From a virus (taxonomy: Duplodnaviria > Heunggongvirae > Uroviricota > Caudoviricetes), in the IMG/VR virus record IMGVR_UViG_2531839667_000007: 36,911 nt of DNA. One strand, 5' to 3'. This document shows, in pieces, positions 5,042 to 34,125 of this stretch. The notes below the pieces were generated by a model, which ran no database searches, was not told the origin of the DNA, and worked only from the letters and a program-made list of their open reading frames with translations. A program made the position numbers and the translations under genes. Numbering within the stretch: position 1 is the first letter of the stretch; every line of letters starts with the position of its first letter.

Positions 5042-5464
5042 GTGGCAAAAGTTTTTACACAAGAAGAGCGAGAAAAAATTAAAGGGCAGGTTGTTGAACT
5101 CGTACGCCAGAGTGGGCGTGAGACGTTACGGCAACTGGAAGTCAAGACAGGTGCGACAAGATATCTGATGAGCGTTCTCGCAAGAGAGCTGGTTGCCAGC
5201 GGCGATGTATACAACTCTGGTTACGGGTTGTTCCCGTCTGAACAGGCGCGTAAGGACTGGCAAAACGCCCGCAAAAAACTCTCAAGGGCAAATCTGAAGA
5301 AACCATCTGTGGTTGATCCTGACCTTATCTGGTCATTACCAGACGGAGAAATACGCCGCTACGACAGGCGTCAAAACATAATCTGTAGCGAGTGCCGGAA
5401 GAGCGAAGCTATGCAGCGTGTACTGGCTTTCTATCAGGGTAATTTTCAGAAGGTGCTGTTGTGA
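5042..5464 (+). CDS. hypothetical protein at the lambda P position (140 aa, GTG start)
   Basis: Track ORF; GTG start 4 nt after AGGAGG; not DnaC-like or lambda P-like by eye; C-terminal CSEC motif. Confidence 0.55.
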   Translation: MAKVFTQEEREKIKGQVVELVRQSGRETLRQLEVKTGATRYLMSVLARELVASGDVYNSGYGLFPSEQARKDWQNARKKLSRANLKKPSVVDPDLIWSLPDGEIRRYDRRQNIICSECRKSEAMQRVLAFYQGNFQKVLL

Positions 5465-5569
5465 GCCAAATTAACAATCGGAACTTCGTGAAGAGAAAGC
5501 ATAATCCAAATCTGAATAATTAAGTTCAGCACTGTAAATAAAATTTAATCCTTAACTGGAGGTATATCT

Positions 5570-5683
5570 ATGTCAAATACACAGAAAATTATTAACACTG
5601 AAAAATATAACGAGTGGGTGAAAAATTCTCTGAGCAGATTTTTAAAATTACTGGCGACGAGAATGTGGCAAAAAATGAATTAG
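5570..5683 (+). CDS. small ORF (37 aa, MSNTQKIINTEKYNEWVKNSLSRFLKLLATRMWQKMN)
   Basis: Own translation; ATG 7 nt after GGAGG; AT-rich segment. Confidence 0.3.
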   Translation: MSNTQKIINTEKYNEWVKNSLSRFLKLLATRMWQKMN

Positions 5684-5813
5684 AACCGTGGACACCTGAA
5701 GGAAACGCACCAAATTATTGCTGGTGGGAGGTTGATCCGGTTGATGCTGCAAATGAAGCCATGAGTTACCACAACGATTAATGTCGGGAGGCCGCCCGAA
5801 AGGGCGGTAAGAA

Positions 5814-7041: not shown

Positions 7042-7048
7042 AAACGGT

Positions 7049-7503: not shown

Positions 7504-7575
7504 CCTGGCATTCTGGTTTACAATTCGCACGTCAGCCTGAACACCTGACACCTGCTGCGCCAGCAGAGAAAACAG

Positions 7576-16914: not shown

Positions 16915-17031
16915 TTATATGGCTTCATTTGTTGTAATCTGCTGCGTCTCAAGGGATATGTTTATGAGAGCGACCATGAGTGTTGGATTATATACCTAAC
17001 ATATCAAGGGATTAGAAATCGATAAATCCCC

Positions 17032-17565
17032 ATGAACGAAAAAATAAAATACGGCCTGTCGGCTGCCGTTCTGGCGCTGATTGGTGCAGGTGCTTCTGCG
17101 CCTGAAATCCTCGACCAGTTTCTGGATGAAAAGGAAGGTAACCACACCATGGCATACCGTGATGGTGCGGGGATCTGGACCATCTGCCGTGGTGCCATTC
17201 TGGTGGATGGTAAGCCTGTTATTCCTGGCATGAAGCTGTCAAAGGAAAAATGCGACCGGGTTAATGCCATCGAACGTGACAAGGCGCTGGCATGGGTGGA
17301 GAAAAACATCAAAGTGCCGCTGACCGAACCCCAGAAAGCGGGGATCGCGTCATTCTGTCCGTACAACATTGGCCCCGGTAAGTGCTTCCCGTCGACGTTT
17401 TATAAACGAATTAATGCAGGCGATCGAAAAGGTGCCTGTGAGGCGATTCGCTGGTGGATTAAGGACGGTGGCAGAGACTGCCGTATTCGTTCAAACAACT
17501 GTTACGGTCAGGTATCCCGTCGTGACCAGGAGAGCGCGCTGGCGTGCTGGGGTATCGACAGATAA
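17032..17565 (+). CDS. R: SAR endolysin (T4-lysozyme-like, phage 21 R-type)
   Basis: 177 aa; Gly/Ala-rich hydrophobic N-terminus GLSAAVLALIGAGASAP; E-x8-D-x5-T catalytic spacing in EGNHTMAYRDGAGIWT. Confidence 0.85.
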   Translation: MNEKIKYGLSAAVLALIGAGASAPEILDQFLDEKEGNHTMAYRDGAGIWTICRGAILVDGKPVIPGMKLSKEKCDRVNAIERDKALAWVEKNIKVPLTEPQKAGIASFCPYNIGPGKCFPSTFYKRINAGDRKGACEAIRWWIKDGGRDCRIRSNNCYGQVSRRDQESALACWGIDR

Positions 17566-17655
17566 GCAGAATATTTTGCTGAAAAATAAGGCATGGCCAC
17601 GCGGGCGGATAACACGAAATCCTGCGAACTGGCGAAACGTAAGTGAATAAAAGTA

Positions 17656-17696
17656 AAAACCCCGTTTGTTGGCACCAAGCGGGGTTTTGTGTTTCT
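17656..17696 (+). terminator. terminator-like hairpin between endolysin and Rz
   Basis: ACCCCGTTTG / CAAGCGGGGT stem with one mismatch, then TTTTGTGTTT; A-rich upstream. Confidence 0.4.
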
Positions 17697-17721
17697 GACC
17701 TTGAGTAAGGCAAGGGAGAAC

Positions 17722-17904
17722 ATGGCGAAGTATAAACGAATTCTGTTGAGGTTGACCATGAAAAACGGCCTTGAACTGAAAGCGCCTGTAACTGATGACA
17801 TCAGCAGAGCACTGGCTTTTGCCATTAAGTGGGTGGCGGTCGGTGTTGCTGTGTCCCCGATGCTGTATGGGCTGGCAAAACTGGTCATTGCGTTGAAATC
17901 GTGA
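17722..17904 (+). CDS. small predicted membrane protein (60 aa, [11 protein letters not shown]...)
   Basis: Internal ATG of track ORF 17689..17904, AAGGGAGA SD; hydrophobic C-terminal half. Confidence 0.4.
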
Positions 17905-17918
17905 AGGGAGGATTAAGC

Positions 17919-18050
17919 ATGTCAGACAAACTCATAACGCTGGCGAAGATCCTCTGTGTAATTGTCGGCATTTCATTTTCACTAATGCTGGTTGCTCTTT
18001 TTCTTTCCATGGCCTGGATGATGTTGTCTTCGTCGGGGTTGCTGGGGTGA
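17919..18050 (+). CDS. small hydrophobic peptide (43 aa, [43 protein letters not shown])
   Basis: Internal ATG of track ORF 17829..18050, GAAGGGAGG SD at 7 nt; single predicted TM helix. Confidence 0.35.
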
Positions 18051-18061
18051 ACATAAACCGA

Positions 18062-18520
18062 ATGCTTTCCGCGTTTATCGTTATTCTGCTGGTGGCCTGT
18101 GGTGCGCTGTGGATGGCAACAGACCATTACCGTGATAACGCGATTACCTACAAAGCGCAGCGCGATAACAAAGCCAGTGAACTGAAGCTGGCGAACGCAA
18201 CCATTACTGATATGCAGGTGCGCCAGCGCGATGTTGCTGCGCTCGATGCAAAATACTCGAGGGAATTAGCCGATGCGAGAGCTGAAAATGAAACTCTTCG
18301 CGCTGACGTTGCCGCTGGTCGTAAGCGCCTGCGGATCAACGCCACCTGTCCAGGCTCCGTGCGTGAAGCCCCCACCACCTCCGGCGTGGATAATGCAACC
18401 GGCCCCCGACTGGCAGACACCGCTGAACGGGATTATTTCATCCTCAGAGAACGGTTGATGACAATGCAGAAGCAGGTGGGAGGGGCGCAGGAATATATCC
18501 GCACTCAGTGTATTAACTAG
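18062..18520 (+). CDS. Rz: Rz i-spanin (alternative GTG start 18047)
   Basis: N-terminal TM then [32 protein letters not shown]... closely matching lambda Rz. Confidence 0.85.
18288..18458 (+). CDS. Rz1: Rz1 o-spanin lipoprotein, embedded in the +1 frame of Rz
   Basis: [17 protein letters not shown] has lipobox LVVSAC; proline-rich PPPPPAW; wholly inside Rz. Confidence 0.75.
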
Positions 18521-18543
18521 TATTTTTGTTATCCGGAGAATGC

Positions 18544-18768
18544 ATGAAGAAATTACAGGTAACCGTAAAGCCTCTTCAGGGAACAATTCTGTTCCGTATT
18601 TTGCAGCGTGGTCGTGTTCTTGTTGAAGGTTCGTTCAGTGGTAAATGTATGCAATTACACTCCCGGACCTTTCAGGTGAATGCCACGAATGAAGAGCTAA
18701 CCGTTGAGTGTACGATGAATACCGCTAAATGCCGCATGGTATCCGCTGCATTACAGCCAGTGTGTTGA
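18544..18768 (+). CDS. hypothetical late protein (74 aa from MKKLQV)
   Basis: Internal ATG of track ORF 18526..18768 with GGAGA SD at 6 nt; not Bor-like. Confidence 0.45.
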   Translation: MKKLQVTVKPLQGTILFRILQRGRVLVEGSFSGKCMQLHSRTFQVNATNEELTVECTMNTAKCRMVSAALQPVC

Positions 18769-19124
18769 GCGACCTTATTATCCATGCGCGGTATTGTCGC
18801 CGTATTCCCGCATTAACAGAGACCGCAGCCCGACCGGGAGACTCCTCTGTGCGAGTGTGCGGGGATAATCAAAAACGATACACACCGGGGTTTACCGCGT
18901 TAACGGAGCGCGGCGTTGTCCCCTCATAGTCGCATGTCCGGTGCGATGGTGGAAGAAGCCGGATGTTTATCACTATTAATTGATGACACAGAAATGGATT
19001 CATTGAATTTCAGCACGTTTTTGTATTCGTGTTATTGAACATCTGTTTATTTTACTTTTAACATATTGATAATAAAAAGAGCTGTAAATCTTTAGATGAG
19101 TCGATTTTGTCCGGGGAAGTTCAA

Positions 19125-19265
19125 ATGGATTTTATGCTGACGGTTTCTGGTGTGGTTATCCTGTCCATTGCTTATACTGCAGATAAATATGGCTGCCATT
19201 TGTTATCACGTATTGGCGCTTATTGTTCGTTGATGCTGATTTTCTCGTCGCTTTTTTTTGAGTAA
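19125..19265 (+). CDS. small predicted membrane peptide (46 aa)
   Basis: Own translation MDFMLTVSGVVILSIAYTADKYGCHLLSRIGAYCSLMLIFSSLFFE; below track cutoff; AT-rich region. Confidence 0.3.
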   Translation: MDFMLTVSGVVILSIAYTADKYGCHLLSRIGAYCSLMLIFSSLFFE

Positions 19266-19397
19266 GTTATATTAATTATAACAAATAATTTTCTGTGTTA
19301 TTTTTTCAGGCTATCCCGTCAGAGGGGAAGCCTGTACTGCCGGGGAGCGAATGGAAAACTGATGTGTCCGGTAACTGCGTGTTCTGTGAACACCATG

Positions 19398-19583
19398 TTA
19401 CTTAATTATGTAATTCATACCCGAACTCTCTGTTGACAGCCTTCTTCTGCAGGCTTCAATAACCCACGCTGAAAAGTTTCCTGAACCTTTCAGATCAAGA
19501 GCGATGTTAATTTGTTCAATCATCTGGTTTGGAAATCGGATGTTGCGGGTTGTTGTTCTGCGGGTTCTGTTCTTTGATGACAT
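19398..19583 (-). CDS. Arc/MetJ-type ribbon-helix-helix DNA-binding protein (61 aa)
   Basis: RNIRFPNQMIEQINIALDLKGSGNFSAWVIEACRRRL fits the Arc-like RHH pattern; GGGGA SD; transcribed opposite to late genes. Confidence 0.55.
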   Translation of the reverse strand: MSSKNRTRRTTTRNIRFPNQMIEQINIALDLKGSGNFSAWVIEACRRRLSTESSGMNYIIK

Positions 19584-19789
19584 AATGTTTCCCCATATTC
19601 AGTGTTGCTGATTTGTATTATCTGAAGTTGCTTTTACGTTAATTTGACGCAGATCAATTAATACGATACCTGCGTCATAATTGATTATTTCTCGTGGTTT
19701 GATGGCGTACACACATGTTGTGATAAACCTTATATAGATGATAATCATTATCATTTCGTGGGTCCTTTCCGGCGATCCGACCGGTTACG

Positions 19790-19801
19790 GGGCGGCGACC
19801 T
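19790..19801. other. cosN cohesive-end site (GGGCGGCGACCT)
   Basis: 45 nt from 19790 are identical to the left-end sequence of phage lambda as recalled (GGGCGGCGACCTCGCGGGTTTTCGCTATTTATGAAAATTTTCCGG), about 185 bp before the small terminase gene. Confidence 0.8.
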
Positions 19802-19835
19802 CGCGGGTTTTCGCTATTTATGAAAATTTTCCGGG

Positions 19836-19940
19836 ATCCATGTCCGGTTTCTCTGCAAGTTAACTATATGAAAAATATAAAAACAGGCTGTCCGTGAACC
19901 GGACATGTGCAAAAAACGGACATGTAAACCGGACATGACC
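19836..19940. repeat. cosB-like array of CGGACATG repeats (direct at 19900-19907, 19917-19924, 19930-19937; inverted at 19839-19847)
   Basis: Repeats read from sequence between cosN and the small terminase gene; differ from lambda R sites. Confidence 0.55.
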
Positions 19941-19984
19941 GGTTTTGTGCTGATTGTGAGGTAAGAGTTTTTGCGAGGTGAGGA

Positions 19985-20494
19985 GTGGCTACGCAGACTG
20001 AAGTTGCCAGGCATTTGAGTCTGACCGATCGCCAGCTTCGCAGATTGCAGAAATTACCGGGTGCCCCGGTCTCGAATAAGCGAGGGCAACTGGATCTGGA
20101 TGCCTGGCGCGATTTTTACATATCGTATCTGAGAAGAAGTAAAAACGATGTGCCTGATGGCGATAGCGAAGAAGACTATGAAGAGAAATTGCTTATTGCC
20201 AGATGGGAACTGACAGCAGAACAGGCTGTTACACAGCAGTTAAAAAATGAGGTGTCAAAAGGAAAACTGATTGACACCGGGTTCTGTATTTTTGCCCTCA
20301 GTAAGCTGGCAATGGCGTTATCCAGTACGCTTGATTCCATCCCTTTATCCATGCAGCGACAGTTTCCTGATTTAACACCGCGCCATCTTGACCATCTGAA
20401 AACCCTTATTGCTAAGGGGGCAAATCAGTGTGCGCGGGCAGGGGATAAATTACCGGATTTACTTGATGAATATATCAGAGCAACAACTGAATAA
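19985..20494 (+). CDS. nu1: terminase small subunit (Nu1-like, divergent N-terminal DNA-binding region)
   Basis: C-terminal half matches lambda Nu1 (...SIPLSMQRQFPDLTPRHLDHLKTLIAKG...); GTG start after GAGG; overlaps large terminase start. Confidence 0.85.
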   Translation: MATQTEVARHLSLTDRQLRRLQKLPGAPVSNKRGQLDLDAWRDFYISYLRRSKNDVPDGDSEEDYEEKLLIARWELTAEQAVTQQLKNEVSKGKLIDTGFCIFALSKLAMALSSTLDSIPLSMQRQFPDLTPRHLDHLKTLIAKGANQCARAGDKLPDLLDEYIRATTE

Positions 20495-22394
20495 TATGAT
20501 GAGCGCTGTCACAACTGCATTACAGCCCCTGATAAGGGCATTGCCGGTGACGCCAGTTGAATGGGCTGATCAAAATTATTATCTGCCTAAAGAATCTTCA
20601 TATGGTGAGGGCGAATGGAAAACGCTGCCATTCCAGATCGCCATCATGAACAGCATGGGGAATGATCAGATCCGCACTGTTAATCTGATTAAATCTGCCC
20701 GTGTTGGCTATACAAAGATGTTGCTGGGGGTGGTCGGGTATTTTATTGAGCATAAATCCCGAAACAGTCTGCTTTTTCAGCCCACGGATTCTGCCGCTGA
20801 AGATTTTATGAAGTCTCACGTGGAGGCGACGATTCGGAACGTGCCATGCCTGAAAGACCTTTCCCCATGGCTGGGTCGTAAACATCGTGACAATACTCTC
20901 ACGCTGAAACGCTTTTCATCGGGCGTCGGTTTCTGGTGCCTGGGCGGCGCTGCCGCCAAAAACTACCGTGAAAAATCCGTGGACGTGGTCTGTTATGACG
21001 AGCTTTCCTCGTTCGAACCGGATGTTGAAAAAGAGGGTTCGCCAACCCTGCTGGGGGATAAACGTATTGAGGGCTCTGTATGGCCAAAATCCATTCGCGG
21101 CTCGACGCCTAAAATCAAAGGCTCCTGCCAGATCGAAAAAGCCGCTAACGAGTCGGCACACTTCATGCGTTTTTATGTGCCCTGTCCGCACTGTGGGGAG
21201 GAGCAGTATCTGAAATTTGGCGATGATGCCTCGCCTTTCGGTCTTAAGTGGGAGAAGAATAAGCCAGAAAGTGTTTTCTACCTTTGTGAGCATCATGGCT
21301 GTGTGATCCATCAGTCTGAGCTTGACCAGAGTAACGGGCGGTGGATCTGTGAAAACACGGGCATGTGGACCCGTGACGGCCTGATGTTTTTCAGCGCCCG
21401 GGGTGATGAAATTCCGCCGCCGCGCTCCATCACTTTCCATATCTGGACGGCGTACAGTCCGTTCACCACCTGGGTACAGATTGTCTATGACTGGCTGGAT
21501 GCACTGAAAGATCCCAACGGCCTGAAAACCTTTGTGAACACCACGCTGGGCGAGACCTGGGAAGAGGCCGTGGGCGAAAAACTCGATCACCAGGTGCTGA
21601 TGGATAAGGTTGTGCGTTACACGGCGGCGGTGCCTGCCCGGGTGGTTTATCTGACGGCGGGCATTGACTCGCAGCGAAACCGTTTTGAGATGTATGTCTG
21701 GGGATGGGCTCCGGGAGAGGAAGCCTTTCTGGTGGATAAAATCATCATTATGGGGCGTCCCGATGAGGAAGAGACGCTGTTACGTGTGGATGCGGCGATC
21801 AACAAAAAATACCGCCATGCAGACGGAACCGAAATGACCATTTCCCGTGTCTGCTGGGACATCGGGGGGATCGATGGCGAAATCGTTTATCAGAGGTCAA
21901 AAAAACACGGTGTTTTCCGGGTGCTGCCGGTAAAAGGCGCATCTGTCTATGGCAAGCCGGTGATCACCATGCCAAAAACCCGCAATCAGCGGGGCGTGTA
22001 TCTGTGTGAAGTGGGGACGGACACCGCAAAAGAAATTCTCTATGCCCGTATGAAAGCCGATCCCACGCCTGTGGATGAAGCCACGTCGTATGCCATCCGT
22101 TTTCCTGATGATCCGGAGATTTTTTCGCAGACAGAGGCGCAGCAACTGGTCGCGGAAGAGCTTGTGGAGAAGTGGGAAAAAGGAAAGATGCGTCTGCTGT
22201 GGGATAACAAAAAGCGGCGTAACGAAGCGCTGGACTGCCTGGTGTATGCCTACGCGGCATTACGTGTGTCCGTGCAACGCTGGCAGCTTGATCTGGCTGT
22301 ACTGGCAAAATCCCGGGAAGAAGAGACGACCCGGCCAACCCTGAAAGAACTGGCAGCGAAGCTGTCCGGAGGAGTGAATGGTTACAGTCGCTGA
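20466..22394 (+). CDS. A: terminase large subunit (lambda gpA-like)
   Basis: 642 aa from MNISEQQ; long colinear similarity to lambda gpA including WADQNYYLPKES and KNYREKSVDV. Confidence 0.95.
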   Translation: MNISEQQLNNMMSAVTTALQPLIRALPVTPVEWADQNYYLPKESSYGEGEWKTLPFQIAIMNSMGNDQIRTVNLIKSARVGYTKMLLGVVGYFIEHKSRNSLLFQPTDSAAEDFMKSHVEATIRNVPCLKDLSPWLGRKHRDNTLTLKRFSSGVGFWCLGGAAAKNYREKSVDVVCYDELSSFEPDVEKEGSPTLLGDKRIEGSVWPKSIRGSTPKIKGSCQIEKAANESAHFMRFYVPCPHCGEEQYLKFGDDASPFGLKWEKNKPESVFYLCEHHGCVIHQSELDQSNGRWICENTGMWTRDGLMFFSARGDEIPPPRSITFHIWTAYSPFTTWVQIVYDWLDALKDPNGLKTFVNTTLGETWEEAVGEKLDHQVLMDKVVRYTAAVPARVVYLTAGIDSQRNRFEMYVWGWAPGEEAFLVDKIIIMGRPDEEETLLRVDAAINKKYRHADGTEMTISRVCWDIGGIDGEIVYQRSKKHGVFRVLPVKGASVYGKPVITMPKTRNQRGVYLCEVGTDTAKEILYARMKADPTPVDEATSYAIRFPDDPEIFSQTEAQQLVAEELVEKWEKGKMRLLWDNKKRRNEALDCLVYAYAALRVSVQRWQLDLAVLAKSREEETTRPTLKELAAKLSGGVNGYSR

Positions 22395-22584
22395 ACTGCA
22401 GGCGCTGCGTCAGGCGCGCCTTGATTTATTAACCGGTAAACGGGTGGTGTCTGTCCAGAAAGATGGTCGCAGAATTGAATATACGGCGGCTTCTCTGGAT
22501 GAGCTTAACCGGGCGATCAATGATGCGGAGTCGGTACTGGGGACAACCCGGTGTCGCCGTCGTCCGCTGGGAGTGAGATTATGA
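22378..22584 (+). CDS. W: head-tail joining protein (lambda gpW-like)
   Basis: 68 aa; TGKRVVSVQKDGRRIEYTAASL matches lambda gpW. Confidence 0.9.
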   Translation: MVTVAELQALRQARLDLLTGKRVVSVQKDGRRIEYTAASLDELNRAINDAESVLGTTRCRRRPLGVRL

Positions 22585-24173
22585 AACGAACGCCTGTCCT
22601 GATTGATGTGAACGGCGTTCCGCTTCGTGAGAGTCTCAGCTACAACGGGGGCGGTGCAGGATTTGGCGGGCAAATGGCTGAGTGGTTGCCACCGGCGCAG
22701 AGTGCCGATGCGGCCCTGCTGCCCGCGTTGCGTCTGGGGAATGCCCGGGCAGATGATCTGGTGCGCAATAACGGGATAGCGGCCAATGCGGTGGCTCTGC
22801 ATAAGGATCACATTGTCGGGCATATGTTTCTGATCAGCTACCGTCCGAACTGGCGCTGGCTGGGGATGCGGGAGACCGCAGCAAAAAGCTTTGTCGATGA
22901 GGTGGAGGCGGCCTGGTCGGAATACGCCGAAGGGATGTCTGGCGAGATCGACGTGGAAGGAAAACGCACGTTCACGGAATTTATCCGTGAAGGTGTGGGC
23001 GTTCATGCGTTTAACGGCGAAATCTTTGTGCAGCCGGTCTGGGATACGGAAACCACGCAGTTATTCCGTACGCGTTTTAAAGCCGTGAGTCCGAAACGGG
23101 TGGACACGCCTGGACACGGTATGGGGAACCGTTTTCTGCGGGCCGGTGTGGAGGTCGATCGATATGGCCGTGCCGTCGCGTACCATATCTGTGAGGATGA
23201 TTTTCCGTTCTCTGGTAGTGGACGATGGGAACGGATCCCGCGTGAACTTCCCACCGGGCGTCCGGCCATGCTGCATATTTTCGAGCCGGTGGAGGACGGG
23301 CAGACCCGTGGGGCTAATCAGTTTTACAGCGTCATGGAACGGCTGAAGATGCTCGATTCCCTGCAGGCAACACAGCTTCAGTCGGCCATAGTGAAGGCGA
23401 TGTATGCAGCGACGATTGAAAGTGAACTTGATACCGAAAAGGCCTTTGAATATATCGCCGGCGCGCCACAGGAGCAGAAGGATAATCCGCTTATTAATAT
23501 TCTGGAGAAGTTTTCCAGCTGGTATGACACGAATAACGTGACACTGGGCGGTGTCAAAATTCCGCACCTTTTCCCTGGTGATGATCTGAAACTACAGACT
23601 GCGCAGGATTCAGACAATGGATTTTCTGCGCTTGAACAGGCGCTGCTGCGGTATATCGCCGCCGGTCTTGGCGTTTCCTACGAACAGTTGTCCCGTGATT
23701 ACTCGAAGGTCAGTTACTCAAGTGCCCGCGCCTCCGCCAATGAGTCGTGGCGCTATTTTATGGGGCGGCGAAAATTTATTGCGGCCCGGCTGGCCACGCA
23801 GATGTTTTCCTGCTGGCTGGAAGAGGCACTTCTTCGGGGGATTATTCGTCCGCCACGGGCACGTTTTGATTTTTATCAGGCGCGATCAGCCTGGTCACGG
23901 GCAGAGTGGATTGGTGCCGGAAGAATGGCCATTGACGGGCTCAAGGAAGTCCAGGAATCAGTGATGCGCATTGAGGCCGGACTGAGCACGTATGAGAAAG
24001 AGCTGGCGCTGATGGGCGAGGATTATCAGGACATTTTCCGCCAGCAGGTCAGGGAATCTGCTGAGCGGCAAAAAGCCGGACTCTCACGTCCGGTGTGGAT
24101 AGCGCAGGCGTATCAGCAGCAGATAGCGGAGAGTCGTAGGCCGGAAGAGGAGACAACACCACGTGAGACGTAA
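22581..24173 (+). CDS. B: portal protein (lambda gpB-like)
   Basis: 530 aa from MKRTPVLID; extensive similarity to lambda gpB; ATGA overlap with W. Confidence 0.95.
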   Translation: MKRTPVLIDVNGVPLRESLSYNGGGAGFGGQMAEWLPPAQSADAALLPALRLGNARADDLVRNNGIAANAVALHKDHIVGHMFLISYRPNWRWLGMRETAAKSFVDEVEAAWSEYAEGMSGEIDVEGKRTFTEFIREGVGVHAFNGEIFVQPVWDTETTQLFRTRFKAVSPKRVDTPGHGMGNRFLRAGVEVDRYGRAVAYHICEDDFPFSGSGRWERIPRELPTGRPAMLHIFEPVEDGQTRGANQFYSVMERLKMLDSLQATQLQSAIVKAMYAATIESELDTEKAFEYIAGAPQEQKDNPLINILEKFSSWYDTNNVTLGGVKIPHLFPGDDLKLQTAQDSDNGFSALEQALLRYIAAGLGVSYEQLSRDYSKVSYSSARASANESWRYFMGRRKFIAARLATQMFSCWLEEALLRGIIRPPRARFDFYQARSAWSRAEWIGAGRMAIDGLKEVQESVMRIEAGLSTYEKELALMGEDYQDIFRQQVRESAERQKAGLSRPVWIAQAYQQQIAESRRPEEETTPRET

Positions 24174-25668
24174 TCTTTCACACATTATTGCCGCAGCATT
24201 CAATGAACCGCTGCTTCTGGAGCCCGCCTATGCGCGGGTTTTCTTTTGCGCGCTCGGGCGCGAGATGGGGGCAGCAAGTCTTTCGGTACCACAACAGCAG
24301 GTACAGTTTGATGCTCCCGGAATGCTGGCTGAAACGGACGAGTACATGGCCGGAGGTAAACGACCGGCCCGTGTTTACAGGGTGGTGAACGGTATTGCTG
24401 TACTGCCGGTGACCGGCACGCTGGTGCACCGGCTGGGTGGTATGCGGCCATTTTCCGGAATGACAGGCTATGACGGTATTGTCGCCTGTCTTCAGCAGGC
24501 AATGGCGGATAGCCAGGTGCGGGGCGTACTGCTGGACATTGACAGTCCGGGCGGGCAGGTCGCCGGCGCGTTTGACTGCGCTGACATGATTTACCGCCTC
24601 CGTCAGCAGAAGCCGGTCTGGGCACTGTGCAATGACACGGCCTGCTCTGCAGCCATGCTGCTGGCGTCGGCCTGCTCCCGACGGCTGGTTACCCAGACAT
24701 CCCGTATCGGCTCTATTGGCGTGATGATGAGCCATGTCAGCTATGCCGGTCATCTGGCGCAGGCCGGTGTTGATATCACGCTGATTTACTCAGGGGCGCA
24801 CAAGGTGGATGGCAATCAGTTTGAAGCGTTGCCGGCAGAGGTTCGCCAGGACATGCAACAGCGCATTGATGCGGCGCGCCGGATGTTTGCTGAAAAAGTG
24901 GCGATGTATACCGGTCTGTCTGTTGATGCCGTCACGGGAACAGAGGCCGCCGTTTTTGAAGGTCAGTCCGGCATTGATGCCGGGCTGGCGGATGAATTAA
25001 TCAATGCGTCGGATGCCATCAGTGTGATGGCCACGGCGCTGAACAGTAATGTCAGAGGAGGCACTATGCCGCAATTAACTGCAACGGAAGCCGCCGCGCA
25101 GGAGAACCAGCGAGTGATGGGGATCCTGACATGCCAGGAAGCGAAAGGACGTGAACAGCTTGCCACGATGCTGGCAGGACAACAGGGCATGAGCGTTGAA
25201 CAGGCCCGGGCGATTCTGGCCGCGGCGGCACCACAGCAGCCGGTGGCATCCGCGCAGAGTGAAGCCGATCGCATTATGGCGTGTGAAGAAGCGAAAGGTC
25301 GTGAACAACTGGCGGCAACGCTGGCGGCGATGCCGGAGATGACGGTGGAAAAAGCCCGCCCGATCCTGGCTGCTTCACCGCAGGCGGATGCCGGACCCTC
25401 ACTCCGTGATCAGATCATGGCACTGGATGAGGCAAAAGGGGCTGAGGCTCAGGCTGAACAGCTGGCTGCCTGCCCGGGAATGACTGTGGAGAGCGCCCGG
25501 GCTGTGCTGGCTGCGGGATCAGGTAAGGCAGAACCGGTCTCTGCATCCACAACCGCCATGTTTGAACGTTTCATGGCGAATCATTCACCGGCAGCGGTAC
25601 AGGGTGGCGTGCCACAGACGTCAGCAGACGGTGATGCGGACGTGAAAATGCTCATGGCCATGCCATGA
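24163..25668 (+). CDS. C: head maturation protease / minor capsid protein C with in-frame Nu3-like scaffold region
   Basis: 501 aa, GTG start; N-terminal two thirds match lambda gpC (S49/ClpP-like); C-terminal part has three tandem copies of a scaffold-like motif. Confidence 0.9.
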   Translation: MRRNLSHIIAAAFNEPLLLEPAYARVFFCALGREMGAASLSVPQQQVQFDAPGMLAETDEYMAGGKRPARVYRVVNGIAVLPVTGTLVHRLGGMRPFSGMTGYDGIVACLQQAMADSQVRGVLLDIDSPGGQVAGAFDCADMIYRLRQQKPVWALCNDTACSAAMLLASACSRRLVTQTSRIGSIGVMMSHVSYAGHLAQAGVDITLIYSGAHKVDGNQFEALPAEVRQDMQQRIDAARRMFAEKVAMYTGLSVDAVTGTEAAVFEGQSGIDAGLADELINASDAISVMATALNSNVRGGTMPQLTATEAAAQENQRVMGILTCQEAKGREQLATMLAGQQGMSVEQARAILAAAAPQQPVASAQSEADRIMACEEAKGREQLAATLAAMPEMTVEKARPILAASPQADAGPSLRDQIMALDEAKGAEAQAEQLAACPGMTVESARAVLAAGSGKAEPVSASTTAMFERFMANHSPAAVQGGVPQTSADGDADVKMLMAMP

Positions 25669-25704
25669 AGCCAGTGCTGACCATCAACAGGAGGTTTTTA
25701 CAAT

Positions 25705-26052
25705 ATGGTGACGAAAACTATCACTGAACAGCGTGCGGAAGTACGTATTTTTGCCGGTAATGATCCGGCTCATACCGCCACAGGCAGCAGCGGGATTTCC
25801 TCGGCAACACCGGCACTGACGCCCCTGATGCTGGATGAGGCCACCGGGAAACTGGTGGTCTGGGACGGACAAAAAGCCGGTAGTGCGGTTGGCATACTGG
25901 TACTGCCGCTTGAAGGCACAGAGACGGTGCTGACCTATTACAAGTCGGGGACCTTTGCGACGGAGGCAATCCGCTGGCCTGAAAGTGTGGATGAACACAA
26001 AAAGGCCAACGCCTTTGCCGGCAGTGCCCTGAGTCACGCGGCGCTGCCGTAA
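25705..26052 (+). CDS. D: head decoration protein (lambda gpD-like)
   Basis: 115 aa; DPAHTATG...TPLMLD...YYKSGTF matches lambda gpD. Confidence 0.9.
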   Translation: MVTKTITEQRAEVRIFAGNDPAHTATGSSGISSATPALTPLMLDEATGKLVVWDGQKAGSAVGILVLPLEGTETVLTYYKSGTFATEAIRWPESVDEHKKANAFAGSALSHAALP

Positions 26053-26109
26053 CACGTTATCAGGCCACCGCGGTGGCCTGACTGATTTCTGAATGAAAGG
26101 AACTGATTT

Positions 26110-27138
26110 ATGGGATTGTTTACGACCCGCCAGTTACTCGGTTATACCGAACAAAAAGTGAAATTTCGTGCGCTGTTTCTGGAGCTGTTTTTCCGCCGTA
26201 CGGTGAATTTCCATACCGAAGAGGTGATGCTGGACAAAATTACCGGAAAAACGCCGGTGGCGGCCTATGTTTCCCCGGTTGTTGAAGGAAAAGTGCTGCG
26301 TCATCGTGGTGGTGAAACCCGCGTGTTACGTCCGGGCTACGTCAAGCCGAAACACGAATTTAATTACCAGCAGGCGGTTGAGCGTCTTCCCGGTGAAGAT
26401 CCGGCTCAGCTGAACGACCCGGCCTACCGTCGTCTGCGTATCATCACTGATAACCTCAAACAGGAAGAGCACGCCATTGTCCAGGTGGAAGAAATGCAGG
26501 CGGTGAATGCCGTGCTGTATGGCAAATACACGATGGAAGGAGACCAGTTCGAGAAAATTGAGGTCGATTTTGGCAGGTCGACGAAGAATAACATCACTCA
26601 GGGTAGTGGTAAGGAGTGGTCAAAACAGGATCGTGACACGTTCGATCCTACACATGATCTTGACCTCTACTGCGACCAGGCCAGCGGTCTTGTGAATATT
26701 GCCATTATGGACGGTACCGTCTGGCGTCTGCTGAATGGCTTTAAATTGTTCCGCGAAAAACTGGATACCCGTCGCGGCTCTAATTCGCAACTCGAAACAG
26801 CGGTGAAAGACCTGGGCGCGGTGGTGTCCTTCAAAGGGTATTACGGCGATCTGGCCATTGTGGTGGCAAAAACGTCTTATGTGGCAGAGGACGGTACCGA
26901 AAAACGTTATCTGCCTGAGGGCTCGCTGGTCCTGGGGAATACGGCAGCAGAGGGCATTCGTTGCTATGGTGCCATTCAGGATGCGCAGGCGTTGTCCGAA
27001 GGTGTGGTGGCCTCTTCCCGTTATCCGAAACACTGGCTGACGGTAGGGGATCCCGCCCGTGAATTTACCATGACGCAGTCCGCGCCGCTGATGGTGTTGC
27101 CGGACCCGGATGAGTTTGTGGTGGTACAGGTGAAATAA
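26110..27138 (+). CDS. E: major capsid protein (lambda gpE-like)
   Basis: 342 aa; colinear similarity to lambda gpE. Confidence 0.95.
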   Translation: MGLFTTRQLLGYTEQKVKFRALFLELFFRRTVNFHTEEVMLDKITGKTPVAAYVSPVVEGKVLRHRGGETRVLRPGYVKPKHEFNYQQAVERLPGEDPAQLNDPAYRRLRIITDNLKQEEHAIVQVEEMQAVNAVLYGKYTMEGDQFEKIEVDFGRSTKNNITQGSGKEWSKQDRDTFDPTHDLDLYCDQASGLVNIAIMDGTVWRLLNGFKLFREKLDTRRGSNSQLETAVKDLGAVVSFKGYYGDLAIVVAKTSYVAEDGTEKRYLPEGSLVLGNTAAEGIRCYGAIQDAQALSEGVVASSRYPKHWLTVGDPAREFTMTQSAPLMVLPDPDEFVVVQVK

Positions 27139-27189
27139 TCCGTGAGCGGGGGCGAAATGCCCCCGTGTCTTTTTTCACAGGGGGATGAT

Positions 27190-27564
27190 ATGGCAACGAA
27201 AGAGCAAAATCTGAAACGGCTTGATGAACTGGCCCTGATTCTGGGGCGTGAGCCGGATATATCCGGGAGTGCCGCAGAGATAGCGCAGCGGGTGGCAGAA
27301 TGGGAAGAGGAAATGCAGTCATCCGGCGATGATGTACAGGTTATGAATATGGATATCCGGGAGAGGGAAAACGCGGCTCATGATGTTCGTGAGGAAACAT
27401 CCGGCGCGTTAACGCGCATCAGAGTTCTGACCTGCCTCCATCTCTGTGGCGTTGATGGTGAAACGGGGGAATCCGTTGAGCTTGCGGATGTTGGTCGGGT
27501 GATTCTGATTATGTCCTCAGATGCAAAAACACACGTTGATGGTGGAATGGCTGTTTATGCGTGA
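27190..27564 (+). CDS. FI: DNA packaging protein FI-like
   Basis: 124 aa from MATKEQ; position and partial similarity to lambda FI. Confidence 0.75.
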   Translation: MATKEQNLKRLDELALILGREPDISGSAAEIAQRVAEWEEEMQSSGDDVQVMNMDIRERENAAHDVREETSGALTRIRVLTCLHLCGVDGETGESVELADVGRVILIMSSDAKTHVDGGMAVYA

Positions 27565-27910
27565 TTTTCAGAATGCCTTTGATGCCGCCCTTGCCGGGGT
27601 GGACAGTACGATTGTTGAAGTGATGGGCATCAGTGCGCAGTTCACCTCCGGTGCACAGCGTGGCGGCGAAGTTCAGGGGGTTTTTGACGATCCGGAGTCG
27701 CTGGGTTTTGCCAGTAGTGGGATCCGTATTGAAGGAAGCAGTCCGTCATTATTTGTGCGGACGGATACGGTTCGTGCCGTGCGGCGTGGTGACACGTTGA
27801 CCATTAATGGTGAGACGTTCTGGGTGGATCGTGTTTCTCCGGATGACGGGGGCAGTTGTTATCTCTGGCTGAACCGTGGGCAACCACCCGCAGTTAACCG
27901 GCGACGATAA
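27557..27910 (+). CDS. FII: head-tail connector FII-like
   Basis: 117 aa from MRDFQNAF; C-terminus FWVDRVSPDDGGSCYLWL...PPAVNRRR matches lambda FII. Confidence 0.85.
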   Translation: MRDFQNAFDAALAGVDSTIVEVMGISAQFTSGAQRGGEVQGVFDDPESLGFASSGIRIEGSSPSLFVRTDTVRAVRRGDTLTINGETFWVDRVSPDDGGSCYLWLNRGQPPAVNRRR

Positions 27911-27924
27911 ACGCAGGGTGAATT

Positions 27925-28500
27925 ATGGCGATAAAAGGGCTTGATCAGGCGATTGAAAATCTGAGCCGGGTTCGTAAAAACGCCATTCCGTCGGCTTCAG
28001 CAATGGCTATTAACCGCGTGGCTACAACGGCGATTAATCAGTCTTCATCACAGGTTGCCCGGGAGACCAGGGTGAGCCGGAAACTGGTAAAGGAACGGTC
28101 CAGACTGAAACGGGCGACGGTCAGAAATCCGAATGCCAAAATTATCGTTAACCGCGGTGATCTCCCTGCTATTAAGCTGGGGATCAGGATGCTTGGTCAT
28201 CGTCCGAACAGCATACTTAAAGCCGGTCAGCATCGTTATCAGCGGGCATTCATCCAGCGATTAAATAATGGGCGCTGGCATGTTATGCAACGTTTGCCAG
28301 AAGCCCGGTATGCGAAGGGCAATGACGATAAAGGAAGGAAAAAGCGTAATCGTCTTCCCATTCAGGTGGTTAAAATTCCGATGGCGGCCCCACTGAAGCA
28401 GGCTTTTGATGAGAACGTTAACCGTATCCGGCGAGAACGTCTGCCAAAAGAACTGGGCTATGCGTTGAAACAACAACTAAGGATTGTGATAAAGCGATGA
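27925..28500 (+). CDS. Z: minor tail protein Z
   Basis: 191 aa; MAIKGLDQAIENLSR...[19 protein letters not shown] matches lambda gpZ. Confidence 0.9.
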   Translation: MAIKGLDQAIENLSRVRKNAIPSASAMAINRVATTAINQSSSQVARETRVSRKLVKERSRLKRATVRNPNAKIIVNRGDLPAIKLGIRMLGHRPNSILKAGQHRYQRAFIQRLNNGRWHVMQRLPEARYAKGNDDKGRKKRNRLPIQVVKIPMAAPLKQAFDENVNRIRRERLPKELGYALKQQLRIVIKR

Positions 28501-28892
28501 AACATACTGATATCCGTGCTGCAGTGCTGGATGCACTCGAGCAGCATGAACACGGGGCGACGCTGTTTGATGGTCGCCCCGCTGTTTTTGATGAGGCGGA
28601 TTTTCCGGCAATTGCTGTTTATCTCACCGGCGCTGAATACACGGGCGAAGCGCTGGACAGCGATACCTGGCAGGCGGAGCTGCATATTGAAGTTTTCCTG
28701 CCTGCTCAGGTGCCGGATTCAGAGCTGGATTCGTGGATGGAAAGCCGGATTTATCCGGCGATGAGTGCGATCCCGGCACTGTCAGGCCTGATTACCACGA
28801 TGGTTACGCAGGGCTATGAGTATCGTCGTGATGACGATATGGCGTTATGGAGTTCTGCTGATTTGACTTATTCCATTACATACGAGATGTGA
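28497..28892 (+). CDS. U: tail terminator protein U
   Basis: 131 aa; near-identical to lambda gpU over most of its length. Confidence 0.9.
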
Positions 28893-28899
28893 GGACGAT

Positions 28900-29652
28900 A
28901 TGCCAACACCAAATCCTCTGGCACCGGTAAAAGGTGCCGGTACCACCCTGTGGGTTTATAACGGTCAGGGTGATGCCTATGCAAACCCGTTGTCAGACGA
29001 TAACTGGCAGCGACTGGCACAGGTAAAGGATCTGACGCCGGGCGAGATGACGGCAGAACCCTACGATGATAACTACCTGGATGATGAAGACGCGGACTGG
29101 ACTGCGACCGGGCAGGGGCAGAAGTCTGCAGGAGATACCAGTTTTACGCTGGCCTGGAAACCGGGAGAAGAAGGTCAGAAAGGGCTTATAGGCTGGTTTG
29201 AAAGCGGGGATGTGCGGGCCTATAAAATCCGTTTCCCGAACGGCACGGTGGATGTGTTCCGTGGCTGGGTCAGCAGTATCGGTAAGGCCGTAACGGCGAA
29301 GGAAGTGATCACCCGTACGGTGAAAGTGACCAACGTGGGTAAACCTTCTGTGGCGGAAGAACGCAGCGAAATTACGCCGGTCACTGCGATTAAGGTGACG
29401 CCGACATCTGGTACGGTGGCAAAAGGGAAAACAACAACCCTGACGGTTTCTTTTGAGCCGGAAAGTGCAACCGACAAAACGTTCAGAGCGGTTTCCGCCG
29501 ATCCGTCAACGGGAACCATTGCTGTGAAAGATATGGCGATCACTGTGACGGGGGTTAAGGCTGGAAAAGTGAGTATCCCCGTGATTTCCGGTAATGGTCA
29601 GTTTGCCACGGTAGCTGAAGTCACCGTTACTGAAGCGGGCGCTGCAGGGTAA
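28900..29652 (+). CDS. V: major tail tube protein V
   Basis: 250 aa; strong colinear similarity to lambda gpV. Confidence 0.95.
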
Positions 29653-29665
29653 ACGGAGGTAATAC

Positions 29666-30097
29666 ATGTTTCTGAAAACCGAACAATTTGAATATAACGG
29701 TGTGTCCGTCACGCTTTCCGAGCTGTCTGCGCTGCAGCGTATCGAGCATCTTGCCCTGCTGAAACGACGGGCAGAACAGGCTGAAGCCAGCGGTAACCTG
29801 CAGGTGAGCGTGGAAGACCTTGTCAGAACCGGCGCGTTTCTGGTGGCGATGTCCCTGTGGCATAACCATCCACAGAAAACGGAGTCAACATCAATGAATG
29901 AGGCTGTGATGCAGATCGAACAGGAGGTGCTCACCACCTGGCCTGCTGATGCCATTGCCCGGGCGGAAGACGTGGTGTTGCGTCTGTCCGGGATGAGCGG
30001 GGCTGTTCATGTGGATACGGATATCACCGAAGTGGCGAAAAATAACGCGCTTACTGATGATGATTTTTCTGCGGGAAAGTCTTCGACGGCGAGCTGA
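29666..30097 (+). CDS. G: tail assembly chaperone G
   Basis: 143 aa; MFLKTEQFEYNGVSVTLSELSALQRIEHLALLKR matches lambda gpG; ends just after slippery heptamer. Confidence 0.9.
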   Translation: MFLKTEQFEYNGVSVTLSELSALQRIEHLALLKRRAEQAEASGNLQVSVEDLVRTGAFLVAMSLWHNHPQKTESTSMNEAVMQIEQEVLTTWPADAIARAEDVVLRLSGMSGAVHVDTDITEVAKNNALTDDDFSAGKSSTAS

Positions 30098-30537
30098 ATT
30101 TTGCCCTCAGACTGGCGCGAGAGATGGGGAGGCCTGACTGGCGCGCCATGCTTGCCGGGATGACATCCACCGAATATGCCGACTGGCGACATTTTTACCG
30201 CACGCATTATTTTCAGGATACCCAACTGGATATGCATTTTTCCGGGCTGATGTACGCTGTACTCAGCCTGTTTTTTTGCGATCCGGATATGCATCCCTCT
30301 GATTTCAGTCTGCTTGTCCCCCGGCATGAGGAAGAGCAGGTGGAGAGGCTGGATGAGGACAAAATGCTGATGCAGAAAGCGGCAGGACTTGCCGGAGGCG
30401 TCCGGTTCGGTGGGGACGGAGGGGGCGATATTTTATCGTCTGCGGATGTGGCGGATGTCATGGTGGATGATGCCGCATTAATGATGGCTTCAGCGGGGAT
30501 TCCAGGAGGTGTGAGATATGTCCCAGCCGGTTGGTGA
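29666..30537 (+). CDS. T: tail assembly chaperone G-T fusion made by programmed -1 frameshift at GGGAAAG (30073-30079)
   Basis: Slippery heptamer at the end of G; the -1 frame stays open to 30537 and overlaps the H start, as in lambda. Confidence 0.8.
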
Positions 30538-33097
30538 TCTTATTATTGACCTGAGTCTGGATGCGGTCCGTTTCGATGAGCAGATGAGCCGGGTAAGGCG
30601 TCATTTTTCAGGACTGGATACTGACGCCAGAAAAACCGCCGCTGCTGTTGAACAGGGCCTGAGCCGTCAGGCGCTGGCTGCGCAAAAAGCCGGGATTTCC
30701 GTCGGACAGTATAAAGCGGCCATGCGCACCCTGCCCGCACAGTTTACGGATATCGCCACGCAGCTTGCCGGTGGTCAGAATCCCTGGCTGATCCTGCTGC
30801 AACAGGGCGGTCAGGTGAAGGACTCCTTCGGCGGGATGATCCCCATGCTCAGGGGGCTTGCCGGTGCGATCACCCTGCCGATGGTCGGGGTCACCTCGCT
30901 GGCGGTGGCGACAGGTGCGCTGGCGTACGCCTGGTACCAGGGGGATTCCACGCTTTCAGCGTTTAATAAAACCCTGGTTCTTTCCGGTAATCAGTCCGGA
31001 CTGACTGCCGATCGCATGCTGACGCTCTCCAGAGCCGGACAGGCCGCAGGGCTGACGTTTAACCAGGCGAGTGAGTCACTGGCAGCCCTGGTGAATGCCG
31101 GTGTGCGTGGTGGTGAACAGTTTGATGCGATCAACCAGAGTGTTGCGCGTTTTGCGTCTGCATCCGGTGTGGAGGTGGATAAAGTCGCTGAAGCCTTCGG
31201 GAAGCTGACCACTGATCCGACGTCGGGACTGATGGCGATGGCGCGCCAGTTCCGTAACGTGACGGCAGAACAGATTGCGTATGTTGCACAGCTGCAGCGT
31301 TCCGGTGATGAGGCCGGAGCCTTACAGGCGGCGAACGATATCGCCACGAAAGGCTTTGATGAGCAGACCCGCCGTCTGAAAGAAAACATGGGGACGCTGG
31401 AGACCTGGGCGGATAAAACAGGGAAGGCGTTTAAATCGATGTGGGATGCCATTCTGGATATCGGTCGTCCGGAATCCTCAGCGGATATGCTCGCCAGTGC
31501 GCAGAAGGCATTCGATGAGGCGGATAAAAAATGGCAGTGGTACCAGAGCCGGAGCCAGCGTCGGGGAAAGACCGCCTCTTTCCGTGCCAACCTTCAGGGC
31601 GCATGGGATGACCGTGAAAATGCCCGTCTGGGGCTGGCGGCGGCAACGCTGCAGTCGGATATGGAAAAAGCCGGTGAACTGGCGGCAAGGGATAAGGCTG
31701 AGCGTGACGCGTCACAGCTGAAATATACCGAAGAGGCACAGAAGGCGTATGAACGGATGCTGTCGCCGCTGGAGAAATATACCGCCCGTCAGGAAGAACT
31801 GAATAAGGCCCTGAAAGACGGAAAAATCCTGCAGGCGGATTACAACACGCTGATGGCGTCGGCAAAAAAGGATTATGAGTCGACGCTGAAAAAGCCGAAA
31901 CAGTCCGGCGTGAAGGTGTCTGCGGGCGATCGTCAGGAAGACAGTGCTCATGCTGCCCTGCTGACGCTTCAGGCTGAACTCCGGACGCTGGAGAAGCATG
32001 CCGGAGCAAATGAGAAAATCAGCCAGCAGCGCCGGGATTTGTGGAGGGCGGAGAGTCAGTTCGCGGTACTGGAGGAGGCGGCGCAACGTCGCCAGCTGTC
32101 TGCACAGGAGAAATCCCTGCTGGCGCATAAAGATGAGACGCTGGAGTACAAACGCCAGCTGGCTGCACTTGGAGACAAAGTTACGTATCAGGAGCGCCTG
32201 AACGCGCTGGCGCAGCAGGCGGATAAATTCGCACAGCAGCAACGGGCAAAACGGGCCGCCATTGATGCGAAAAGCCGGGGGCTGACTGACCGGCAGGCAG
32301 AACGGGAAGCCACGGAACAGCGCCTGAAGGAACAGTATGGCGATAATCCGCTGGCGCTGAATAACGTCATGTCAGAGCAGAAAAAGACCTGGGCGGCTGA
32401 AGACCAGCTTCGCGGGAGCTGGATGGCAGGCCTGAAGTCCGGCTGGAGTGAGTGGGAAGAGAGCGCCACGGACAGTATGTCGCAGGTAAAAAGTGCAGCC
32501 ACGCAGACCTTTGATGGTATTGCACAGAATATGGCGGCGATGCTGACCGGCAGTGAGCAGAACTGGCGCAGCTTCACCCGCTCCGTGCTGTCCATGATGA
32601 CAGAAATTCTGCTTAAGCAGGCAATGGTGGGGATTGTCGGGAGTATCGGCAGCGCCATTGGCGGGGCTGTTGGTGGCGGCGCATCAGCGTCAGGCGGTAC
32701 AGCCATTCAGGCTGCTGCGGCGAAATTCCATTTTGCGACCGGGGGATTTACGGGAACCGGCGGCAAATATGAGCCAGCGGGGATTGTTCACCGTGGTGAA
32801 TTTGTCTTCACGAAGGAGGCAACCAGCCGGATTGGCGTGGGGAATCTCTACCGGCTGATGCGCGGCTATGCCACCGGTGGTTATGTCGGTACACCGGGCA
32901 GTCTGGCTGACAGCCGGTCGCAGGCGTCCGGGACGTTTGAGCAGAATAACCATGTGGTGATTAACAACGACGGCACGAACGGGCAGATAGGTCCGGCTGC
33001 TCTGAAGGCGGTGTATGACATGGCCCGCAAGGGTGCCCGTGATGAAATTCAGACACAGATGCGTGATGGTGGCCTGTTCTCTGGAGGTGGACGATGA
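30518..33097 (+). CDS. H: tail tape measure protein H
   Basis: 859 aa; AGGAGG SD; colinear with lambda gpH (853 aa). Confidence 0.95.
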   Translation: MSQPVGDLIIDLSLDAVRFDEQMSRVRRHFSGLDTDARKTAAAVEQGLSRQALAAQKAGISVGQYKAAMRTLPAQFTDIATQLAGGQNPWLILLQQGGQVKDSFGGMIPMLRGLAGAITLPMVGVTSLAVATGALAYAWYQGDSTLSAFNKTLVLSGNQSGLTADRMLTLSRAGQAAGLTFNQASESLAALVNAGVRGGEQFDAINQSVARFASASGVEVDKVAEAFGKLTTDPTSGLMAMARQFRNVTAEQIAYVAQLQRSGDEAGALQAANDIATKGFDEQTRRLKENMGTLETWADKTGKAFKSMWDAILDIGRPESSADMLASAQKAFDEADKKWQWYQSRSQRRGKTASFRANLQGAWDDRENARLGLAAATLQSDMEKAGELAARDKAERDASQLKYTEEAQKAYERMLSPLEKYTARQEELNKALKDGKILQADYNTLMASAKKDYESTLKKPKQSGVKVSAGDRQEDSAHAALLTLQAELRTLEKHAGANEKISQQRRDLWRAESQFAVLEEAAQRRQLSAQEKSLLAHKDETLEYKRQLAALGDKVTYQERLNALAQQADKFAQQQRAKRAAIDAKSRGLTDRQAEREATEQRLKEQYGDNPLALNNVMSEQKKTWAAEDQLRGSWMAGLKSGWSEWEESATDSMSQVKSAATQTFDGIAQNMAAMLTGSEQNWRSFTRSVLSMMTEILLKQAMVGIVGSIGSAIGGAVGGGASASGGTAIQAAAAKFHFATGGFTGTGGKYEPAGIVHRGEFVFTKEATSRIGVGNLYRLMRGYATGGYVGTPGSLADSRSQASGTFEQNNHVVINNDGTNGQIGPAALKAVYDMARKGARDEIQTQMRDGGLFSGGGR

Positions 33098-34121: not shown

Positions 34122-34125
34122 TCCC

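Follow-up and report, generated by a model that had tools for sequence, protein, structure and literature searches.

The window analysed here (the whole stretch of viral DNA, 36,911 nucleotides) carries the head module of a phage 21-type lambdoid prophage, and the protease/scaffold gene of this module, the homologue of lambda C/Nu3, contains three tandem copies of a domain that is present only once in lambda. These copies coincide with the Tri boxes of phage 21 gene 5/6, and we consider it probable that they are three-helix interaction modules that arose by old tandem duplication. The triplication itself is already known, as it was annotated decades ago in the phage 21 head protease/scaffold gene. 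What is added here is the predicted fold of the domain, its single-copy norm in the family, the age of the triplication and the existence of rare variants with two or four copies.

The features of the locus are listed in Table 1. In the list of open reading frames, the start of gene 5 overlaps the end of the portal gene. The gene 5 product matched the Pfam model Peptidase_S49 with 121.4 bits against a cutoff of 24.9 (E = 4e-35), the head maturation protease family phrog_53 (E = 3.5e-229) and crystal structures of SppA (PDB 3rst, E = 2.8e-16). Ser162, located in the segment TACSAAM, was aligned with Ser166 of lambda gpC and with the serine in the GSMAASGG segment of B. subtilis SppA, and this serine is the one that we take to be catalytic in gpC and SppA. 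The preliminary description of this DNA, made from the letters alone, had identified the gene as a lambda C/Nu3 homologue; the S49 match, a full-length alignment with gpC and the position between the portal and the decoration/major-capsid genes all agree with that identification.

The C-terminal region of the protease is encoded a second time by the nested gene 6, whose ATG corresponds to Met302 of the gene 5 frame and is preceded by a Shine-Dalgarno sequence. The equivalent signals in lambda are AGGAGG and an ATG at Met309 (nt 5342). Judged from these sequence signals, gene 6 is a Nu3-type gene, predicted to be translated from an internal start and co-terminal with the protease gene. Its product matched the head scaffolding protein family phrog_8399, and both GenBank records of phage 21 list it as a CDS ('gp6' in M81255.1 and 'scaffolding protein' in OL657228.1, where gene 5 is named 'capsid protease/scaffolding protein'). 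The gene order portal - 5/6 - shp - major capsid is that of phage 21, and the major capsid protein encoded by gene 7 is presumed to be the partner of the scaffold.

Table 1. Features of the gene 5/6 locus and its neighbours, with positions in the window
Feature	Position	Strand	Details
Portal gene (lambda B homologue)	22551..24173	+	61% identity to lambda gpB
Gene 5 (lambda C homologue), prohead protease with C-terminal scaffold region	24163..25668	+	501 aa, GTG start
Peptidase S49 (SppA-like) catalytic domain, aa 146-293	24598..25041	+	PF01343
Shine-Dalgarno sequence GAGGAGG of the nested scaffold gene	25055..25061	+	From the sequence; annotated as gene 6 RBS in M81255.1 and OL657228.1
Nested in-frame gene 6 (Nu3 homologue), scaffolding protein	25066..25668	+	200 aa, co-terminal with gene 5
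Repeat 1, aa 305-358	25075..25236	+	Contains GenBank 'Tri1 box', 25133-25236
Repeat 2, aa 366-407	25258..25383	+	Contains GenBank 'Tri box', 25273-25383
Repeat 3, aa 413-455	25399..25527	+	Contains GenBank 'Tri3 box', 25414-25527
C-terminal tail, aa 456-501	25528..25665	+	One predicted helix, STTAMFERFMANHS, nt ~25543-25584
shp (lambda D homologue), head decoration	25705..26052	+	115 aa; ORF, with shp at the matching place in M81255.1
Gene 7, major capsid protein (lambda E homologue)	26110..27138	+	342 aa, 61% identity to gpE (341 aa)

Gene 5 was 98.6% identical to gene 5 of coliphage 21 (M81255.1, OL657228.1) over 1506/1506 nt, so that the two genes differ only as alleles do (~1.4%). Phage 21 has the same nested gene with its RBS, and the neighbours, namely the portal, shp and major capsid genes, are the same as well. 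The relationship is confined to one part of the prophage: the head-tail part alone matches phage 21 (~93%), whereas the early and late regions differ. The record M81255.1 ('Bacteriophage 21 head gene operon') contains, within gene 6, three repeat_region features that are noted as 'function unknown; putative' and designated 'Tri1 box', 'Tri box' and 'Tri3 box'. In the window these boxes fall at aa 324-358, 371-407 and 418-455, which are the motifs quoted in the preliminary description, and they translate to CQEAKGRE...AAAAPQ, IMACEEAKGRE...AASPQ and IMALDEAKGAE...AAGSGK, respectively. No mention of the Tri boxes or of the sequence analysis of the phage 21 head genes was found in the literature searched, and the prior description rests on the GenBank feature table of M81255.1. 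The source paper of that record is presumably Smith & Feiss, Gene 1993.

The three copies are similar to each other well beyond expectation. Their EAKG anchors are located at aa 326, 376 and 423, giving spacings of 50 and 47 aa, and the pairwise local BLOSUM62 scores were 107 for repeats 1 and 2, 83 for repeats 1 and 3, and 102 for repeats 2 and 3. Composition-preserving shuffles scored approximately 25 ± 5, corresponding to z = 12-18 for the repeat pairs, and none of 1000 shuffles reached the observed score. The region is rich in Ala, the sole point in favour of reading the repeat as a chance similarity of Ala/Gln/Glu-rich low-complexity sequence. We dismiss that reading almost entirely given the shuffles; moreover, the copies are in register and their specific conserved pattern is common to hundreds of relatives. 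Thus the claim of three tandem copies of a motif of approximately 40 aa stands, the quoted peptides being present and the copies being 40-50 aa long. The turn in repeat 3 is degenerate in the phage 21 type, where EAKGAE replaces EAKGRE and the Arg is lost.

In the nucleotide sequence, hardly any trace of the repeat is left: Tandem Repeats Finder found no tandem repeat, and a DNA repeat search recovered only 12-nt seeds that were 150/153 nt apart. When placed in register, the copies had 57-67% nucleotide identity, and the same codon was used for under half of the identical residues. The repeat is therefore a feature of the protein.

We then compared the protein with lambda gpC (439 aa, L001 4418-5737), with which it aligns along the whole length. 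The two proteins share the S49 domain, the aligned serine, the Shine-Dalgarno sequence and ATG of the nested gene, the three-helix motif and the gene order, and their C-terminal tails are similar. They differ in the number of motif copies. Both the pairwise alignment and a repeat HMM gave a single copy in gpC, at aa ~358-397, and the HMM matched three times in the 501-aa protein. Repeat 1 is the positional orthologue of the lambda copy and clusters with the lambda-type single copies. In lambda the motif is preceded by a low-complexity linker that is 34 aa longer than that of the window protein. The length difference between the proteins, which had been put at about 60 aa and amounts to 62 aa (501 vs 439 aa), is explained by two extra units (~97 aa) minus the 34 aa by which the linker between protease and repeat 1 is shorter. 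As was also proposed, all three repeats lie within the Nu3-like scaffold part, inside gene 6; the span of 25100-25500 given for them was essentially right, except that the third copy extends ~27 nt beyond it. Another capsid geometry was considered as the cause of the longer scaffold and rejected, since the major capsid protein is 342 aa long compared with 341 aa for gpE and is 61% identical to it.

To describe the domain itself, we used structure prediction. A single-repeat AlphaFold2 model, for which 27 repeat copies were aligned, had a pLDDT of 90.7 and a pTM of 0.74, with helices at residues 3-18, 27-34 and 41-50. The model of the 200-aa scaffold (pLDDT 70, pTM 0.27) showed three helical units of moderate confidence, with helices at 66-71, 80-87 and 94-103 in repeat 2 and at 113-118, 127-134 and 141-151 in repeat 3; the units were separated by low-confidence linkers and had no fixed mutual arrangement. 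Each repeat is thus predicted to be a small three-helix bundle, joined to the next by a flexible Pro/Ala/Gln-rich linker. Purified lambda Nu3 is said to be largely disordered, reportedly in work by Medina et al. in 2011, which sits uneasily with a confidently folded domain. Across the 27 copies, which came from diverse proteins, eight columns were invariant and six near-invariant, and these positions make up the hydrophobic core and the E-A-K-G-R-E turn between helices 1 and 2. The turn is probably exposed and is likely to be a functional surface.

A Foldseek search against viral models recovered this domain also in S49 proteases of other phages, one of them a cyanophage (TM 0.86-0.89). In the gpC family, protease and scaffold have their C-terminal region in common, and the repeat domain is its core, the part that is conserved and predicted to be folded. 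Neither Pfam nor NCBIfam holds a model for it, and a PDB sequence search with the Nu3-like part gave no relative. Foldseek with the whole 200-aa model against the PDB gave nothing either, as is expected for loosely linked domains with such a low pTM. A helix-hairpin-helix assignment (PF00633, 'LAxxPGMTVExAxxIL') was rejected, as it reached 13 bits against a Pfam threshold of 24 and was marginal in 1 of the 27 copies.

The tail that follows repeat 3 contains one predicted helix (model residues 160-173), which corresponds to a family-wide 'LDxAM' element. In a tail alignment of 96 family members, this helix was located ~53 aa from the C-terminus across the family; in the single-copy proteins, the distance from the end of the motif to the C-terminus had a median of 53 aa. 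The tail helix (AMFERFMA; ALDRLMQ in lambda) resembles helix 1 of the repeats. Furthermore, each unit of core and linker ends in a short helix of the pattern D-(R/Q)-hydrophobic-M, of which the tail helix looks like an orphan copy. The duplicated unit was probably core plus linker plus short helix.

Next, we considered how widely the triplicate form is distributed. The 603-nt scaffold region was present in 1870 of 5426 complete E. coli genomes (about a third), including those of EDL933 and Nissle 1917, at most 5 times per genome, and at least 80% of it was covered in one piece in 1870 of 1875 E. coli records. Close relatives were encoded in 430 IMG/VR stretches. All of the 82 close relatives in which copies were counted (80 viral contigs and 2 phage 21 records) had three. 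In the wider family, relatives of the whole protein numbered 31,102 when 1.84 billion representatives were searched exhaustively with HMMER. Of the best 150, the 129 that were full-length, each representing a 50%-identity cluster, were used to count copies. One copy was found in 97 of them (~75%), and none was detectable in 30. An intact triplicate occurred in one (P0093, 59% identical), and P0092 scored two copies but is a truncated 382-aa member of the query's own lineage. The single copy is thus the usual and ancestral state in the gpC family.

The triplication is old. Repeats 1, 2 and 3 each cluster with the repeat at the same position in three-copy proteins that are ~60% identical overall and mostly from Salmonella, and the triplication therefore predates that divergence. 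Together with the low nucleotide identity between copies, these positional orthologues in Salmonella prophages point to an ancient event. Copy number also varies in nature. Word-indexed homologue searches gave mostly gene fragments, and one of them pointed to variants with two and four copies. In-register deletions leaving two copies were found as rare natural variants (P0015, P0019 and P0021, the last representing 3 sequences), and repeat 2 was partly deleted in the rare variants P0009 and P0011 (the latter representing 53 sequences). P0028, of an E. coli lineage, has four copies, the second and third of which share 82% identity; this state looks like a separate and more recent expansion. Given these variants, the exact copy number may not matter. 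Among close alleles, the ratio of nonsynonymous to synonymous polymorphisms was ~1:1 in the repeats and 16:70 in the protease, indicating weaker constraint on the repeats.

Given that the Tri-box domain is common to protease and scaffold, is conserved and is predicted to be folded, it most probably serves as a module for protein-protein interaction, holding scaffold and protease in the assembling prohead. We propose that an old in-frame tandem duplication of a unit of ~47-50 aa would have produced the three copies of the phage 21 lineage. The domains would bind the scaffold, and the protease with the same C-terminus, to the inner face of the shell and/or to each other. With three modules, the phage 21 scaffold would be trivalent, whereas that of lambda would be monovalent. 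The partner that is bound may be the capsid, the portal or another scaffold molecule. At maturation, the protease would then degrade the whole C-terminal region, as happens in lambda, where gpC is reportedly the protease that removes the scaffold at that stage (Medina et al., in 2010, are said to have described this). The remark in the preliminary description that the triplication may alter the interaction of scaffold or protease with the capsid is reasonable. Correct assembly of the lambda shell and incorporation of the portal depend on the scaffold Nu3, which may be degraded by C (PMC3224144).

A competing explanation, which we hold to be possible although clearly the less probable, is that the three-helix domains self-associate (scaffold with scaffold, and protease with scaffold) while the conserved tail contacts the shell, the triplication altering scaffold polymerisation and not capsid avidity. 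It is usually through the extreme C-terminus that the capsid is bound in other scaffold/protease systems. Since the tail with its 'LDxAM' helix is also conserved across the family, it could be the tail that binds the capsid, and the three-helix domain could bind something else. The likeness of the tail helix to repeat helix 1, with its D-(R/Q)-hydrophobic-M pattern, would permit docking of helices between molecules, and Nu3-Nu3 and C-Nu3 interactions were reported in lambda (PMC3224144). However, the most conserved and probably exposed feature, the EAKGRE turn, is located in the domain and not in the tail. The two-hybrid interaction between E and Nu3 of lambda (PMC3224144) does not map domains and speaks for neither reading.

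It is rather unlikely, in our estimate, that the two extra copies are neutral, that is, a tolerated expansion of a flexible region that spread by drift or hitch-hiking in a successful prophage lineage while one copy does the work. This would be in keeping with the natural variants in which repeat 2 is deleted or truncated, with the four copies of the separate P0028 lineage, with the missing Arg in repeat 3 and with purifying selection that is weaker in the repeats than in the protease; the capsid and portal partners also match those of single-copy lambda in size. On the other hand, the residues that determine the fold and the turn were kept in all three copies across lineages that are ~60% identical, all 82 close relatives have three copies, as do >99% of the E. 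coli records, and the duplication is old and yet without a decayed copy. Finally, it is very improbable that the repeat acts as DNA or RNA, through protein-binding sites (such as the CII-type patterns of the minus strand) or as a substrate for recombination: two matches to ttgynnnnnnttgy are annotated inside gene 6 in OL657228.1 and in-register deletions between repeats do occur (P0021), but the CII annotations are bare pattern matches, the copies have diverged in nucleotides with randomised codons, a DNA-level tandem repeat is undetectable and conservation sits at the amino-acid level.

Other assembly systems offer points of comparison. In phage Mu, the protease and scaffold genes I and Z are nested. 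The protease and scaffold of P2 are specified by one gene, gpO, an arrangement like that of lambda (PMC8508860). P2 gpO and Mu I/Z follow the same logic as gene 5/6, with a protease and a scaffold that have the C-terminal assembly domain in common, although the protease families differ. We know of no repeat of the Tri-box domain in P2 gpO or Mu I/Z. The scaffolds of P22 and phi29 dock on the capsid protein via small helical modules (PMC3185693, PMC11922011). The helix-loop-helix coat-binding domain of the P22 scaffold, and likewise phi29 gp7, is a small helical module near the C-terminus with a basic turn and presumed electrostatic docking; this is an analogy in the way of working only, and a comparison with the repeat domain found neither sequence nor structural similarity. 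Tandem three-helix modules also occur in bacterial surface proteins, namely staphylococcal protein A domains, GA albumin-binding modules and Ebh/Embp repeats; these had no detectable homology (6-18% identity) and belong to unrelated biology, and the likeness is of a kind common to three-helix bundles.

A bolder proposal, which we put forward as speculation with a low chance of being right, is that the Tri-box domain is a family-wide and uncurated 'Nu3 module', serving as the encapsidation/assembly signal of S49 prohead proteases and scaffolds. The LDxAM tail helix would dock on the module of a neighbouring molecule, giving head-to-tail polymerisation, and copy numbers from 1 to 4 would tune valency and kinetics. 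If this were true, the Nu3 module could be used as a portable tag for loading cargo into lambda-like capsids.

For genome annotation these results carry little weight, as the gene belongs to a phage of a textbook lineage and the annotation of its repeats goes back to the sequencing of the phage 21 head operon. What interest is left lies in the domain, as the function of the Tri boxes is listed as unknown and the apparent core of lambda-type scaffolds is without a Pfam or NCBIfam model or a solved structure. Lambda with one copy and phage 21 with three, with capsid proteins of equal length that are 61% identical, constitute a natural experiment on scaffold valency in T=7 assembly.

We compared the nested start of the scaffold gene in phage 21 (gene 6, the Nu3 homologue) with that of lambda. 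In RefSeq NC_001416, lambda nu3 is annotated at 5132..5737 with a product of 201 aa, and no convincing Shine-Dalgarno (SD) sequence was found in the sequence upstream of this start. The counterpart of the phage 21 gene 6 start is lambda Met309 at nt 5342, whose ATG is preceded by AGGAGG, and initiation there gives a Nu3 of 131 aa. Because the SD and the ATG are conserved in lambda and phage 21, sequence comparison favours this shorter product over the annotated one. As shown in the table, the complete phage 21 genome record OL657228.1 also annotates two CII binding sites inside the scaffold gene, one of which falls inside repeat 2; these annotations are bare pattern matches.

As judged from sequence matches, the prophage in the window is a mosaic. 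The two parts differ (window 1-20000 against 20000-36911): the match to phage 21 (~93%) was limited to the head-tail part, from ~20.5 kb onward, and the left 20 kb matched other lambdoid prophages; the best E. coli match points there to replication, methyltransferase and exonuclease functions and to one IS/integrase-core ORF. Three clustered tRNA genes (Met-type CAT, Arg-TCG and Arg-TCT) were also detected, and the STnc100, sok and DicF matches all sit in the early/regulatory part of the prophage.

Features located in the window
Feature	Position	Strand	Basis
DicF antisense RNA	1455-1506	-	Rfam gathering-level match
sok antitoxin RNA (hok/sok-type module)	7083-7258	+	Rfam gathering-level match
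Three-tRNA cluster	11503-11752		ARAGORN and Rfam
STnc100 sRNA	11829-12018	+	Rfam gathering-level match
Strong SD GAGGAGG and gene 6 start	25055-25068	+	Sequence
CII pattern ttgynnnnnnttgy	~25071-25084	-	OL657228.1 annotation
Three-helix Tri-box domain (three copies)	25075-25527		
CII pattern ttgynnnnnnttgy	~25305-25318	-	OL657228.1 annotation
Conserved tail helix AMFERFMA	25543-25584	+	Sequence comparison with lambda gpC tail

Natural copy-number variants of the repeats were found among the homologues: four copies are present in one E. coli lineage (P0028), two copies have arisen via in-register deletions (P0021, P0019 and P0015), and repeat 2 is partial through an internal deletion in P0009 and P0011, the latter representing a cluster of 53 sequences that bear a 19-aa deletion. 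The tail helix, equivalent to ALDRLMQ in lambda and LDxAM in the family consensus, is similar to the first helix in repeats 2 and 3 (ADRIMA and RDQIMA, respectively), and this likeness suggests that an 'orphan' helix-1-like segment already lay behind the domain in the ancestral single-copy protein. The three-helix Tri-box domain (~50 aa) is single-copy in about 75% of gpC-family representatives (n = 129), and it was found also in the S49 protease of a cyanophage. Since Pfam and NCBIfam hold no model for it and no solved structure of it was found, the Tri-box domain is a candidate for curation as a new family.
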